From NCBI RefSeq assembly GCF_003018255.1, contig NZ_CP027440.1: DNA of 64,000 nucleotides; one strand, 5' to 3'. This DNA is from Escherichia coli. Its GTDB lineage: Bacteria; Pseudomonadota; Gammaproteobacteria; Enterobacterales; Enterobacteriaceae. The position numbers were made by a program, and so were the translations under genes. Below the pieces are notes generated by a model. That model was not told where the DNA came from, did no database searches, and saw only the letters and a list, made by a program, of their open reading frames with translations. Each line of letters starts with the position of its first letter. Position 1 is the first letter of the stretch. Shown piece by piece: positions 21,548-61,127 of the stretch.

Positions 21548-21639
21548 GGTGATTGCCTCGCATAACGCGGTATGAAAATGGATTGAAGCCCGGGCCGTGG
21601 ATTCTACTCAACTTTGTCGACTTGAGAAAGACCTGGGAT

Positions 21640-21910
21640 CCTGGGTATTAAAAAGAAGATCTATTTATTTAGAGATCTGTTCTATTGTGATCTCTTATTA
21701 GGATCGCACTGCCCTGTGGATAACAAGGATCCGGCTTTTAAGATCAACAACCTGGAAAGGATCATTAACTGTGAATGATCGGTGATCCTGGACCGTATAA
21801 GCTGGGATCAGAATGAGGGGTTATACACAACTCAAAAACTGAACAACGGTTGTTCTTTGGATAACTACCGGTTGATCCAAGCTTCCTGACAGAGTTATCC
21901 ACAGTAGATC
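21640..21910. other. Chromosomal replication origin oriC
   Basis: Three AT-rich 13-mers (GATCTATTTATTT 21658-21670, GATCTGTTCTATT 21674-21686, GATCTCTTATTAG 21689-21701); DnaA boxes TGTGGATAA 21715-21723, TTATACACA 21821-21829, TTTGGATAA 21856-21864, TTATCCACA 21895-21903; about 14 GATC sites; flanked by mnmG and mioC. Confidence 0.95.
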
Positions 21911-21925
21911 GCACGATCTGTATAC

Positions 21926-23068: not shown

Positions 23069-24061
23069 ATGAAAACCGCTTACATTGCCAAACAACGTCA
23101 AATTAGCTTCGTGAAATCTCACTTTTCCCGTCAACTGGAAGAACGTCTGGGGCTGATCGAAGTCCAGGCGCCGATTCTTAGCCGTGTGGGGGATGGCACG
23201 CAGGATAACTTGTCGGGCTGTGAAAAAGCGGTGCAGGTAAAAGTGAAAGCTCTGCCTGATGCCCAGTTCGAAGTGGTTCATTCACTGGCGAAGTGGAAAC
23301 GTCAGACATTAGGGCAACACGACTTCAGCGCGGGCGAAGGGCTGTACACGCACATGAAAGCCCTTCGCCCCGATGAAGACCGTCTTTCTCCGTTGCACTC
23401 GGTCTATGTTGACCAGTGGGACTGGGAACGCGTAATGGGCGACGGTGAGCGTCAATTCTCGACTCTGAAAAGCACGGTAGAGGCGATCTGGGCGGGAATT
23501 AAAGCAACCGAAGCTGCGGTTAGCGAAGAGTTTGGCCTGGCACCGTTCCTGCCGGATCAGATCCACTTCGTACACAGCCAGGAGTTACTGTCTCGTTATC
23601 CGGATCTCGATGCCAAAGGGCGTGAGCGGGCGATTGCGAAAGATCTTGGCGCGGTATTCCTCGTCGGGATTGGCGGCAAGTTGAGTGATGGTCATCGTCA
23701 CGACGTGCGCGCACCGGATTATGATGACTGGAGCACCCCGTCAGAGCTGGGCCATGCGGGTCTGAACGGCGATATTCTGGTATGGAACCCGGTACTGGAA
23801 GATGCGTTTGAGCTTTCTTCCATGGGGATCCGCGTGGATGCCGATACGTTGAAACATCAGCTGGCGCTGACCGGTGATGAAGATCGCCTGGAGCTGGAGT
23901 GGCATCAGGCGCTGCTGCGCGGTGAAATGCCGCAGACCATCGGCGGCGGTATCGGGCAGTCTCGTTTGACCATGCTGCTGCTGCAACTGCCACATATCGG
24001 CCAGGTTCAGTGTGGTGTATGGCCGGCAGCTGTTCGCGAGAGCGTCCCTTCTCTGCTGTAA
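23069..24061 (+). CDS. asnA: Aspartate-ammonia ligase (asparagine synthetase A)
   Basis: 330-aa ORF ([50 protein letters not shown]...). Confidence 0.96.
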
Positions 24062-24065
24062 TAAT

Positions 24066-25517
24066 TTATCGCCGCCAGCGTCTGAGCAGGCGGCTTCGCA
24101 TCCCGGTATCAAAGCGCCAGATATGATCGAAAATGCGCATGATGCCGGGTTTGCCATGTGCAGACATCGCCACGGCATGAAAGCGATGCTGATGTACGCG
24201 CTGTAGCTCTTTCACTTTACTCGTCACGTCGTCAGGCAACCGCTGGGCGATAAAATCAGAAATCACCACCGCATCGGCATCAAACCATTCCCTGCTTTGC
24301 AAGCGTTCCATAATGGCGCGAAAACAACTGGCAAGATCGGTGCCGCCACGAAACTGCTGGCTTAAAAAACGGATTGCTTGTTCGATGCCTTGTGGGCCTG
24401 AAAGCTCATAACGGACGATCTCGGTGGAAAATAACATAATATAGCAGCGCCGGTTTTCAGCGAGAGCAATGCGCATCAAGGCCATGCAGAACGCTTTCGC
24501 ACACTGTTCATTAAAGCCGCCCATTGAGCCGGAAGTATCCACACAGACAATAAACGGTCCGCGCGGCTGTTCGTCGTAATCTTTATGTACCACCGGGCGT
24601 TCGATCACTTTTTCACGCCACGACTCACCGTGCAGGCGATAGGTGAGCAACTGTTTTTCCACCAGCCGACGGTAAAACTCATACTCCAGTTCCGTTATCC
24701 CCAGTGTCGCCAGTTCTGGCGGCAGGAGACGTAAAATATCATCGCTTTGTTGCAGACCATCAACCTGCTCAGGAACCGTCGCCGGTTCGCGCACCATGGT
24801 GCGGAAGGTTTCCATCTGCGCATCGTTGCGCGGTATTGATTTGGCTTCCCGTGAACGCCCCAACTGTTCTGCCAGGCGTTTCAGTTCCGGCTGTTCGTTA
24901 AGAAATTCACCGTATTTCACAATCAACTGATAGTCGCCGCGTTTAAGCTGACCGGCGCTCATATCCCACAGACGACCAGCTGCGGTATTGTTATCTGCGA
25001 GAATCGGTTCAAGTTGCCCGCTCAGCGTCATGCGTTCCTGAACTTCACTCAACAGTTGTTCGCGTTCTTCTTCTAATAGCTGCTGATTTAGCGTCGTTGC
25101 TTGCACGATCAGACTTAAACGCCAGCGCTGGAGAAAAAGCGTGTGTAACGCTGAAGTGATCGTACTGTTAGCATCAACCAACTGTCGGGCTTGTTCTGCC
25201 CATGGAGAATTCAGACGATGCAGTAAGTCCAGGATCTGTGGTAGCTGCACAATAAACTGCGGCGTGGAGAGGAGCTGGCTTTGCTGATAGCACATCACCT
25301 CTTCGGTGAGTTCCGGCGGGACTCGGGCATCTTTCAGCCGACTGCGCAGCGCCTCACGCCAGCGGGGAACATCATCAGTGATTGCCGCCTTCAGTCGTGG
25401 GAATTTTTCAAAGAAGACCGCCAGCTGCGGTGAGGCCAGCAGCGCGATGATCATCTCTTCGATCAATCCCTCTTCGCTGACGGCCAGCATCACATTAAGC
25501 GTATCCAGCGTTAGCAT
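24066..25517 (-). CDS. viaA: VWA-domain protein ViaA (partner of RavA)
   Basis: 483-aa ORF; start overlaps the ravA stop by 7 nt; C-terminal von Willebrand A-like region. Confidence 0.92.
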
Positions 25518-27007
25518 TGTTGTGCCTGGCGAATCTGGGCGCCGACATCCTGTAGGCTGGCTTCAATGCGACCTAACCAGTCGCCAGGGATAAACAGACA
25601 TTTTTGCTGTTCGCTGAATAAAGCGTGTTGCTTGCGCCAGTCGCTTTCAAGCTCTTCCAGTTGTTGTTTTATTTCACCTGGCAGACCTTCAGCCGATGAA
25701 CCGGGAAGTGCCAGCGTACTGCCTTGTAAACTTACATCGCGTACAACAAGATGTTGGGCGCTATCCACTTCCAGATTCAATTTCTGGGCAAAGCCGATAC
25801 CGTTCAGTTTGCCGCGAATTTCACCACCTTTACTCAGCCACTGTTCCAGCGCGTTACGCTCAAAGGAGATATGAACCACTTCCATATCATGCAGTTTTAA
25901 CGGTTTTTGCAGCAGCAGAGTCAGAGTGGAAGCAGTAACGTTAACAGGAAGTTGATACTGCTGACGACGGCTGAAAATGCCGCCCAGACGAATTACCGTT
26001 AAGGCTGTTTTATCGCTTTGTTGCTGCTGGAGTTGCAGGTGACGTTGCACAATCGCGCCCAGGCGGGTCAACATTCCTTGCTGTTGCCAGGCATGACCGG
26101 TCATCAATACATCAATTTGTTGTTGTATCAAATTCAGGCTTTGCGCGTCATACCACAGGCAATCTTTCAGCAAAATGAGATCAACCGGGGCAACAGCACT
26201 GCGACCGCTAAAAAAGGCGCTGGCCTGCAATAATCGAATCGCTTTTTTCCAGCGACGATCCGAGACATAAGGCGCATCCGGTAATTTATCCAGTTGCTGG
26301 CGCAGCATAAAAATCAGCTCAAATACATGATCGGGCAGCGTAATTTCACCAATCTCTTTCTGCCAGCGTTCATATTCTTCATCTGTGACCTGCAAGGAGG
26401 CAGGAACCGGATTGTCGTTTTCATCCTGTTGACTGGTCAGCATGGAGCGGAAATTCGCTTTATCCTGCACTTTATCTAACCACAGACGAATCAGCATGCG
26501 GTCATATAACGCTTCCAGACTGCTGTCTGCTTCCGGCAGCTCGTTGGAGGCCGCCACCAGCAGGCGCATCGGGATTTTTTCTACGTGTGCACCGTTGCGG
26601 AACTGGCGCTCGTTAATGGCGGTGAGCAAGGTATTAAGAATTGCCGGGCCCGCTTTCCAGATCTCATCCAGAAAGACGATTTCTGCTTCCGGCAGGTAAC
26701 CGCTGGTTAAACGTTCATAGCGCCCTTCATCTTTTAGCGCCTGAATAGAAAGGGGACCAAAAACCTCTTCCGGCGTGGAGAAGCGAGTCATCAGATATTC
26801 AAACGCGCGGGCATTCTGAAAGGCGAATTTTAAGCGCCGGGCGATCAAACTTTTGGCAATACCTGGCGGGCCAAGGAGGAACACACTTTCACCACTTAAT
26901 GCCGCTAATAAACACAAGCGGATGGCGTGGCTACGTTCATAAAGCCCCTTTTCCAACGAACTGCTCAGGCGGGAAATTCTTTCCGCTAATAAATGAGGGT
27001 GAGCCAT
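25511..27007 (-). CDS. ravA: MoxR-family AAA+ ATPase RavA
   Basis: 498 aa from [15 protein letters not shown]... with Walker A motif GPPGIAKS; the track ORF extends 8 codons further upstream (to 27031). Confidence 0.93.
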
Positions 27008-27229
27008 AATGAAGTGGCGTCCTTTCGTCAAAAGTTCTGCGTAAATTGCGAGTATAGACGTTTCTTGCTGGTGGCTAAAATAGTCTCAAAGGGGGGGTAT
27101 TTTTCTTTGAGCCAGGTTAATGTGGCCGCATTTAGGAGTACGATTTTGCCGTTAATCGTGCATACTGTGCGCTTTTTTGTGGGCCAAGGGACTAAGCACA
27201 CATTTCATATTTCAACGAAAGACTAGTCT

Positions 27230-29098
27230 ATGAGCACTGATAATAAGCAATCATTGCCCGCGATTACCCTCGCGGCGATTGGAGTTGTCTACGGCGATAT
27301 TGGTACCAGCCCGTTATATACACTTCGTGAATGTTTGTCCGGCCAGTTTGGTTTTGGCGTTGAACGCGATGCCGTGTTTGGCTTTTTATCGCTGATCTTC
27401 TGGCTGCTAATCTTTGTGGTTTCCATTAAATATCTCACCTTCGTGATGCGGGCAGATAACGCCGGTGAAGGGGGGATCCTGACGTTGATGTCGCTTGCCG
27501 GGCGTAATACGTCGGCGCGAACCACATCAATGCTGGTGATTATGGGGCTAATCGGCGGCAGCTTTTTCTATGGTGAAGTCGTCATAACACCCGCTATTTC
27601 GGTGATGTCAGCCATTGAAGGTCTGGAAATCGTCGCCCCGCAGCTGGATACCTGGATAGTTCCCCTCTCAATTATCGTTCTCACTTTATTATTTATGATT
27701 CAAAAACATGGCACGGCTATGGTCGGTAAGCTGTTTGCGCCGATCATGCTGACCTGGTTTTTGATTCTGGCAGGACTGGGGTTACGTAGCATTATTGCTA
27801 ACCCGGAAGTGCTGCATGCGCTGAATCCGATGTGGGCGGTGCATTTCTTCCTTGAATACAAAACGGTTTCTTTTATTGCATTAGGGGCAGTGGTGCTGTC
27901 GATTACGGGGGTCGAGGCGCTGTATGCTGATATGGGGCACTTTGGTAAGTTCCCTATTCGCCTGGCGTGGTTCACCGTCGTATTACCTTCCTTAACTCTT
28001 AATTACTTCGGTCAGGGCGCTCTGTTGTTAAAGAACCCGGAAGCAATTAAGAACCCGTTCTTCCTGTTGGCACCGGACTGGGCGCTGATCCCGCTGCTGA
28101 TCATCGCCGCACTGGCGACGGTAATTGCCTCGCAGGCGGTTATCTCTGGCGTCTTCTCATTGACGCGTCAGGCGGTACGTCTGGGATATTTGTCGCCGAT
28201 GCGCATTATTCACACCTCCGAAATGGAGTCAGGGCAAATCTATATTCCGTTTGTGAACTGGATGCTCTATGTCGCGGTCGTGATTGTGATTGTCAGCTTT
28301 GAGCACTCCAGCAACCTGGCGGCGGCGTACGGGATTGCGGTGACCGGAACCATGGTGCTGACGTCTATTCTCTCGACTACCGTGGCACGTCAGAACTGGC
28401 ACTGGAATAAGTATTTTGTTGCGCTGATCCTGATTGCTTTCCTTTGTGTCGATATTCCATTGTTCACCGCTAACCTCGATAAACTGCTCTCCGGCGGCTG
28501 GTTGCCATTGAGCCTCGGTACGGTGATGTTTATCGTGATGACCACCTGGAAGAGCGAGCGTTTCCGCTTGCTGCGGCGGATGCATGAACATGGCAACTCT
28601 CTGGAGGCGATGATTGCTTCGCTGGAGAAATCACCGCCCGTTCGCGTGCCTGGGACCGCGGTGTATATGTCACGTGCAATCAACGTCATTCCCTTTGCGC
28701 TGATGCATAACCTTAAACATAACAAGGTATTGCATGAGCGGGTGATTCTGTTAACTCTGCGCACCGAAGATGCGCCATATGTCCATAACGTCCGTCGGGT
28801 ACAGATTGAACAACTGTCGCCCACGTTCTGGCGCGTGGTGGCAAGTTATGGTTGGCGAGAAACGCCAAACGTGGAAGAAGTATTCCACCGCTGCGGTCTG
28901 GAAGGATTAAGTTGCCGGATGATGGAAACCTCCTTCTTTATGTCGCATGAGTCGTTGATCCTCGGCAAACGCCCGTGGTATTTGCGTCTGCGCGGTAAGC
29001 TGTACTTGCTGTTGCAACGTAATGCGCTGCGTGCGCCGGATCAATTTGAAATCCCGCCAAACAGGGTTATCGAACTGGGTACTCAGGTCGAAATCTAA
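27230..29098 (+). CDS. kup: Low-affinity potassium uptake transporter Kup (TrkD)
   Basis: 622-aa polytopic membrane protein ([32 protein letters not shown]...). Confidence 0.96.
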
Positions 29099-37722: not shown

Positions 37723-39264
<1,542 letters not shown>

Positions 39265-39349
39265 CCTTAAAGAAGCGTACTTTGCAGTGCTCACACAGAT
39301 TGTCTGATAGAAAGTGAAAAGCAAGGCGTCTTGCGAAGCAGACTGATAC

Positions 39350-39425
39350 GTCCCCTTCGTCTAGAGGCCCAGGACACCGCCCTTTCACGGCGGTAACAGG
39401 GGTTCGAATCCCCTAGGGGACGCCA
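39350..39425 (+). tRNA. gltU: tRNA-Glu (UUC), 16S-23S spacer tRNA
   Basis: GTCCCCTTCGTCTAGAGGCCCAGGACACCGCCCTTTCACGGCGGTAACAGGGGTTCGAATCCCCTAGGGGACGCCA, 76 nt. Confidence 0.95.
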
Positions 39426-39609
39426 CTTGCTGGTTTGTGAGTGAAAGTCACCTGCCTTAATATCTCAAAACTCATCTTCGGGTGATGTTTGAGATATTTG
39501 CTCTTTAAAAATCTGGATCAAGCTGAAAATTGAAACACTGAACAACGAAAGTTGTTCGTGAGTCTCTCAAATTTTCGCAACTCTGAAGTGAAACATCTTC
39601 GGGTTGTGA

Positions 39610-42515
<2,906 letters not shown>

Positions 42516-42612
42516 ACAACGCCGAAGATGTTTTGGCGGATGAGAGAAGATTTTCAGCCTGATACAGATTAAATCGACATGTCATAACGAGACGTGTTGA
42601 TAAAACAGAATT

Positions 42613-42732
42613 TGCCTGGCGGCCTTAGCGCGGTGGTCCCACCTGACCCCATGCCGAACTCAGAAGTGAAACGCCGTAGCGCCGATGGTAGTGTGGGGTC
42701 TCCCCATGCGAGAGTAGGGAACTGCCAGGCAT
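42613..42732 (+). rRNA. rrfC: 5S ribosomal RNA
   Basis: TGCCTGGCGGCC...GGGAACTGCCAGGCAT, 120 nt. Confidence 0.96.
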
Positions 42733-42784
42733 CAAATTAAGCAGTAAGCCGGTCATAAAACCGGTGGTTGTAAAAGAATTCGGT

Positions 42785-42861
42785 GGAGCGGTAGTTCAGT
42801 CGGTTAGAATACCTGCCTGTCACGCAGGGGGTCGCGGGTTCGAGTCCCGTCCGTTCCGCCA
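42785..42861 (+). tRNA. aspT: tRNA-Asp (GUC)
   Basis: GGAGCGGTAGTTCAGTCGGTTAGAATACCTGCCTGTCACGCAGGGGGTCGCGGGTTCGAGTCCCGTCCGTTCCGCCA, 77 nt. Confidence 0.95.
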
Positions 42862-42869
42862 CCCTAATT

Positions 42870-42945
42870 AGGGGCGTAGTTCAATTGGTAGAGCACCGGT
42901 CTCCAAAACCGGGTGTTGGGAGTTCGAGTCTCTCCGCCCCTGCCA
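42870..42945 (+). tRNA. trpT: tRNA-Trp (CCA)
   Basis: AGGGGCGTAGTTCAATTGGTAGAGCACCGGTCTCCAAAACCGGGTGTTGGGAGTTCGAGTCTCTCCGCCCCTGCCA, 76 nt. Confidence 0.95.
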
Positions 42946-60667: not shown

Positions 60668-60797
60668 AGTGTGGTAGAATATCAGCTTACTATTGCTTTA
60701 CGAAAGCGTATCCGGTGAAATAAAGTCAACCTTTAGTTGGTTAATGTTACACCAACAACGAAACCAACACGCCAGGCTTATTCCTGTGGAGTTATAT

Positions 60798-61127
60798 ATG
60801 AGCGATAAAATTATTCACCTGACTGACGACAGTTTTGACACGGATGTACTCAAAGCGGACGGGGCGATCCTCGTCGATTTCTGGGCAGAGTGGTGCGGTC
60901 CGTGCAAAATGATCGCCCCGATTCTGGATGAAATCGCTGACGAATATCAGGGCAAACTGACCGTTGCAAAACTGAACATCGATCAAAACCCTGGCACTGC
61001 GCCGAAATATGGCATCCGTGGTATCCCGACTTTGCTGCTGTTCAAAAACGGTGAAGTGGCGGCAACCAAAGTGGGCGCACTGTCTAAAGGTCAGTTGAAA
61101 GAGTTCCTCGACGCTAACCTGGCGTAA
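60798..61127 (+). CDS. trxA: Thioredoxin 1
   Basis: 109 aa from [41 protein letters not shown]...; WCGPC active site; the track ORF begins 35 codons upstream. Confidence 0.97.

Follow-up and report, generated by a model that had tools for sequence, protein, structure and literature searches.

The locus analysed here lies in a stretch of Escherichia coli DNA of 64,000 nucleotides (contig NZ_CP027440.1), referred to below as the window. It carries ravA, encoding a MoxR-family AAA+ ATPase, and viaA, encoding the VWA-domain partner of RavA, both on the minus strand, and viaA faces asnA, which is transcribed from the plus strand. In the RefSeq annotation, the gene order is mnmG-mioC-asnC-asnA-viaA-ravA-kup-rbsD, adjoining oriC. 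The features of the locus are as follows:

23069-24061, plus strand: asnA, aspartate-ammonia ligase, convergent to viaA (TIGR00669 equivalog, Pfam AsnA)
23930-24065, minus strand: ravA-viaA transcript beyond the viaA stop codon, in antisense to asnA (mapped by Adams et al. 2021, PMC7815308)
24062-24065, no strand: spacer of 4 bp, taat, separating the stop codon of asnA from that of viaA (read from the sequence)
24062-24354, plus strand: asnA transcript beyond the asnA stop codon, in antisense to viaA (mapped by Adams et al. 2021, PMC7815308)
24066-25517, minus strand: viaA, VWA-domain partner of RavA, 483 aa (NF008230, Pfam, PDB)
24071-24094, no strand: GC-rich inverted repeat GCCGCC-N12-GGCGGC within the last viaA codons, predicted to fold on both strands
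25511-25517, minus strand: overlap of the ravA stop and the viaA start, ATGCTAA, 7 nt (read from the sequence)
25511-27007, minus strand: ravA, MoxR-family AAA+ ATPase, 498 aa (NF010054, Pfam, PDB)
27008-27229, minus strand: ravA-kup divergent intergenic region with the native ravA promoter (from the literature)

Elsewhere in the window, the mnmG-mioC gap (21548-21925) is oriC, with three matches to the DnaA-box consensus (TTATNCACA) at 21715-21723 (minus strand), 21821-21829 (plus strand) and 21895-21903 (plus strand); the window as a whole contains seven such matches, against two expected. Rfam models detected an rRNA operon at 37723-42942 (16S, tRNA, 23S, 5S and two more tRNAs, with StyR-44 in the spacer), and also the small RNA STnc410, a Rev39-type 5' UTR and a TrxA 5' UTR thermometer (11202-11359, 46164-46453 and 60728-60827, respectively).

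The identities of ravA and viaA given by the first-pass annotation were confirmed with NCBIfam equivalog models. RavA matched NF010054 ('ATPase RavA') over residues 1-498 of 498 with 992.8 bits (cut-off, 681 bits), and ViaA matched NF008230 ('ATPase RavA stimulator ViaA') over its full length with 878 bits (cut-off, 500 bits). AsnA matched the TIGR00669 equivalog with 665 bits, as well as the Pfam AsnA model, and no evidence contradicting these gene identities was found. For RavA, Pfam detected bpMoxR (191 bits), AAA_5 (98 bits), AAA_lid_8, the LdcI-binding LARA_dom (135 bits, residues 335-436) and the C-terminal domain ATPase_RavA_C (83 bits, residues 444-497). Of the 'AAA_3/MoxR' assignment proposed earlier, the MoxR-type AAA+ part therefore stands on bpMoxR and AAA_5, while the AAA_3 label does not, its score of 21.4 bits being under the cut-off of 27. 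The Walker A motif (GPPGIAKS) and the Walker B motif (IVFLDE) were located by motif at residues 46-53 and 110-115. Over its whole length, RavA matched the K-12 RavA structures 3NBX and 6Q7L (PDB), and it also matched the LARA-domain structures 4UPF and 5FL2. The mechanical list of open reading frames begins ravA at a TTG (27031) that precedes the annotated ATG (27007) by 24 nt. The ATG showed anti-Shine-Dalgarno (anti-SD) pairing of -5.3 kcal/mol, compared with +0.2 kcal/mol, that is, no pairing, for the TTG, and it agrees with the RefSeq annotation and with the crystallized protein of 498 aa.

For ViaA, the predicted VWA domain with a MIDAS motif was recovered. Two Pfam models, VWA_CoxE (39.8 bits; cut-off, 26.4) and VWA_2 (34.8 bits; cut-off, 27), matched the C-terminal part, at approximately residues 320-457, and the DxSxS element of the MIDAS, a motif annotated in ViaA by Felix et al. 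(2022), was found as DTSGS at residues 327-331. The downstream MIDAS residues may be the Thr in GGTD (391-394) and the Asp in ISDF (419-422), candidates assigned by motif position only. Pfam found no match in the N-terminal region of about 320 residues, of which residues 1-191 match PDB entry 7UGC, the N-terminal domain of K-12 ViaA. The protein ends in an Arg-rich helix with RRWRR at residues 479-483, and the Arg-rich C-terminal helix has been described as lipid-binding (Felix et al. 2022). Both domains on which the first-pass annotation had staked its assignment, AAA+ and VWA, were detected by Pfam.

Compared with K-12 MG1655, the ravA-viaA region of the window was colinear, with mismatches at 75 of 4501 nt and no indels. 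The gene lengths, the 7-nt overlap and the 4-bp gap to asnA are identical to those of K-12 ravA-viaA (b3746-b3745), and the differences are allelic only, amounting to three residues in RavA and one in ViaA. Relative coordinates also agree with the RefSeq annotation of a genome 99.9% identical to the window. RavA of K-12 is a hexameric MoxR-family AAA+ ATPase, the activity of which is raised approximately threefold by ViaA via the ViaA middle domain and the RavA triple-helical bundle. In K-12, ViaA binds FrdA (fumarate reductase) and Nuo subunits (NADH dehydrogenase I), RavA and ViaA each bind anionic phospholipids of the inner membrane, and the LARA domain of RavA binds the lysine decarboxylase LdcI separately from the ViaA-linked targets. 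During fumarate respiration, under anaerobic, low-energy conditions, ravA-viaA raise the proton-motive-force-dependent uptake of gentamicin, an aminoglycoside. The role of the pair is debated between that of a chaperone of respiratory complexes, lipid remodelling and effects on membrane energization. By analogy with these nearly identical proteins, RavA of the window would form a hexamer with ViaA-stimulated ATPase activity.

As in the MoxR AAA+/VWA pairs NorQ-NorD and CbbQ-CbbO described in the literature, the ATPase gene adjoins the gene for a VWA/MIDAS adaptor. RavA-ViaA differs from pairs of this type in the LARA and RavA C-terminal domains of RavA, in the N-terminal region of ViaA without Pfam match, and in its targets (Frd, Nuo, LdcI and membrane lipids).

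As the native promoter, Wong 2014 used the 206 bp directly preceding ravA, and in K-12 the operon is sigma-S dependent under aerobic conditions and Fnr dependent under anaerobic conditions, with very low native expression. Within 27008-27229, no match to the Fnr consensus TTGAT-N4-ATCAA with two or fewer mismatches and no minus-strand promoter in a sigma-70 consensus scan were detected. The nearest match to the Fnr consensus was located at 27237-27250, within kup, and the window-wide counts of such matches were those expected by chance. Since neither scan gave a clear site, we placed the ravA promoter from the literature only.

We then considered the convergent end of the operon. The stop codon of asnA (TAA, 24059-24061, plus strand) and that of viaA (24068-24066, minus strand) are separated by exactly the 4 bp (24062-24065) given in the first-pass annotation, which had also held that this gap leaves no room for independent terminators. 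In agreement with this claim, a terminator scan of 24040-24100 found no terminator-like site at the junction, and the transcript ends mapped in MG1655 lie within the opposite genes. These ends were taken from supplementary files 1 and 2 (3' ends and Rho inhibition in MG1655) of Adams et al. (2021; PMC7815308), and the colinear alignment without indels allowed conversion by subtracting 3,904,086 from the MG1655 coordinate. The 3' end of asnA RNA at MG1655 3928243 (plus strand) lies 96 nt beyond the asnA stop, at window position 24157, and the Rho termination region mapped to 3928440 (plus strand; Rho score, 4.9) falls at 24354 (PMC7815308). On the minus strand, a Rho termination region at 3928016 (score, 3.9; p = 4e-8) falls at 23930, in antisense to asnA and 136 nt beyond the viaA stop (PMC7815308). 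Based on these published maps, both transcripts continue into the opposite gene, where Rho terminates them, and the read-through across the asnA-viaA junction that had been proposed as a check is evident in them. The SMRT-Cappable-seq supplements, which we also searched for transcript ends, contained no entries for the ravA, viaA and asnA genes.

The inverted repeat at 24071-24094 was considered as a bidirectional intrinsic terminator and rejected: it has no U-tract and was missed by the terminator scan. It was likewise rejected as a selected structure, as other species change its 3' arm, replacing Arg with Gln or Lys, without compensatory change. Most likely, the repeat is a by-product of Arg codons. 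Within the asnA reading frame, a separate, strong hairpin is present at 23332-23382 (plus strand; GGGCGAAGGGC...GCCCTTCGCCC), and Term-seq 3' ends lie just past it, at MG1655 3927465 and 3927468, or window 23379 and 23382 (PMC7815308). This internal hairpin may be a site of premature termination or processing.

To follow the junctions across the family, we scanned one genome per species and compared the 80 best-matching species of Enterobacteriaceae, whose ViaA shares 77-99% identity with the query. The genes asnA and viaA meet tail-to-tail in 74 of these species, at a distance of -4 to 17 bp, most commonly 0 bp; at the six other loci, asnA was not found. In Pseudescherichia vulneris (L027, 5452-5947), asnA has been lost, and a co-directional asnC follows viaA after 36 nt. 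Two further loci, L014 (titled Escherichia sp. ESNIH1) and L040, have no asnA within the downstream flank of about 4 kb and probably resemble P. vulneris in the loss of asnA. The ravA/viaA overlap is ATGA in all three. One contig, CACSKA010000004.1, is titled Chryseobacterium sp. 18061 and contains ravA-viaA-asnA of Enterobacteriaceae type, with ViaA 83% identical to that of E. coli; this assembly is probably contaminated or mislabelled.

Overlapping ends of this kind raise the reading of asnA/viaA as a working excludon, in which transcription of each gene lowers expression of the other by polymerase collision or by RNase III cleavage where the two RNAs form a double strand. The pair is already a member of the published list of E. 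coli convergent excludons, or overlapping 3' UTR pairs, the transcripts of which overlap tail-to-tail (ExcludonFinder, PMC12288877). In addition to this listing, the extension of both transcripts into the opposite gene and the close abutment kept in 74 of the 80 species speak for such a function, as do array data of Wong et al. (2014; PMC3893208). In their study, the marker of a ravA::cat deletion drove extra viaA expression in cis, and among the genes for which a fold-change could be calculated, asnA fell the most (-11.2-fold; Table S1), while over-expression of ravA-viaA in trans from a plasmid changed asnA by +1.96-fold. Read-through in cis into asnA would explain this contrast, and the fall of asnA in the ravA::cat strain looks like a cis artefact of the marked deletion; this reading is ours, and the array authors gave no such interpretation. 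Against it, asnB was lowered as well in the ravA::cat strain, by 3.2-fold (PMC3893208), so that part of the asnA response may act in trans. Moreover, at the very low native expression of ravA-viaA, interference with asnA may be negligible in the wild type, and some lineages have lost asnA altogether. Mutually exclusive expression of asnA and viaA through their overlap is a candidate only. Taken together, we consider the working excludon a doubtful possibility. Slightly more doubtful is its fuller form, in which ravA-viaA transcription driven by Fnr or sigma-S would lower asnA by convergent interference, transcription of asnA would lower ViaA, and the fall of asnA in the ravA::cat strain would be an unrecognized cis effect.

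At the other end of viaA, the overlap with ravA was exactly as first read, 7 nt at 25511-25517 (ATGCTAA). The ravA frame ends with CAG GCA CAA CAA TGC TAA, with the stop TAA at 25513-25511 (minus strand), and the viaA frame opens with ATG CTA ACG CTG, with the start ATG at 25517-25515 (minus strand). The residues encoded by codons 2-9 of viaA are conserved, with third positions varying synonymously, and the sole alternative start, Met10, is replaced by Leu or Ile in 12 species. Because codons 2-9 are conserved and Met10 is not, we take the annotated ATG as the real start of viaA.

Some form of overlap was present in all 80 species (7 nt in 49, 4 nt in 18 and 1 nt in 13) and a spacer in none. 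With the window included (n = 81), the forms were ATGCTAA (27), ATGCTGA (22), ATGTTAA (1), ATGA (18) and TAATG (13), counts which reflect few independent changes of form because the surveyed species are related. Among E. coli genomes, the ravA/viaA junction was ungapped in 5414 of 5426. The 20 nt preceding the viaA ATG showed anti-SD pairing of -2.5 kcal/mol, compared with a median of -2.4 kcal/mol for random 20-mers of the window. Of eight other starts tested, those of ravA, asnA, mioC, mnmG, rbsD and rbsA paired at -5.3 to -7.2 kcal/mol, and those of kup and asnC paired as weakly as that of viaA or more weakly.

The conservation of the overlap and the absence of a Shine-Dalgarno signal above background at viaA support coupling of viaA translation to that of ravA. 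The overlap changes form, yet no species has a spacer in its place, and this points to selection for keeping start and stop close together. The tight co-expression first read from the E. coli overlap is thereby strengthened by the species survey and the background-level pairing, with the coupling itself being what we infer from them. Reported levels of about 350 RavA and 90 ViaA molecules per cell, a ratio of approximately 4:1, indicate that any coupling is not 1:1, and this ratio fits inefficient reinitiation. Two observations count against coupling: overlaps of 7 nt are rarer than those of the ATGA or TAATG type, and a conserved AGG, 7 (or 10) nt upstream of the viaA ATG in 67 of the 81 sequences, could allow weak independent initiation.

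Accordingly, we weighed the alternative that the overlap is mere compact packing, with viaA translated independently from a weak ribosome-binding site of its own at this AGG. The frequency of the AGG and the approximately fourfold difference between RavA and ViaA levels are in its favour, and so is the local RNA fold at the viaA start, for which comparison with shuffled sequence gave z = 0.15; with no extra stability in this prediction, a hairpin hiding the viaA start was not adopted in our reading. However, the AGG falls within conserved Gln-Ala codons of ravA, and its conservation therefore needs no ribosome-binding site; the pairing energy of the region equals the random background; and the form of the overlap has changed in at least three ways across species, never to a spacer. 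Independent translation of a merely packed viaA is therefore unlikely in our judgement.

Translational coupling is the reading we prefer, and the proposed sequence of events is as follows. According to the literature, one mRNA that starts at the promoter upstream of ravA covers both genes. Ribosomes ending ravA would then restart at the viaA ATG, or their passage would expose this ATG, and this step would fix ViaA as a constant, smaller fraction of RavA. As shown for the K-12 proteins, ViaA stimulates the RavA ATPase and links RavA to two respiratory enzymes, fumarate reductase and NADH dehydrogenase I, and to anionic phospholipids. At the distal end, no intergenic terminator is present, and in the published maps Rho stops the ravA-viaA and asnA transcripts inside the opposite genes, giving overlapping convergent transcripts.

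Of 5426 complete E. coli genomes, 5424 carry the locus, in every case on the chromosome and never on a plasmid, with a median of one copy, and ravA-viaA synteny was kept across the 80 Enterobacteriaceae species. A search with PADLOC defence models gave no significant match, the top score being 14 bits for a generic AAA segment, and the reading as an anti-phage defence system was rejected on this result. MoxR-VWA pairs are known from some conflict-system contexts and the bpMoxR model takes its name from MoxR-vWA-beta-propeller ternary systems, but with this PADLOC result, a near-universal chromosomal locus fixed in position by asnA and oriC, and no beta-propeller third gene, a mobile or defence-related cassette is extremely improbable. 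The description of a conserved module that is not a mobile defence cassette holds on these grounds.

In conclusion, we assign a probability of about 0.93 to the reading of this locus as the chromosomal E. coli ravA-viaA operon, with translational coupling and Rho-ended convergent transcripts as proposed. The operon, both protein structures, its regulation and phenotypes, and the overlapping convergent transcripts have all been published already. Our analysis makes three small additions. Stop and start overlap in all the Enterobacteriaceae species surveyed, with three forms that replace one another between lineages; no Shine-Dalgarno signal above background precedes viaA; and the asnA array result, in our reading better explained by read-through into asnA in cis, is a caution for users of marked ravA or viaA deletions. 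If asnA/viaA were indeed a working excludon, it would link nitrogen metabolism, through ammonium-dependent asparagine synthesis, to the aminoglycoside-sensitizing RavA-ViaA system.
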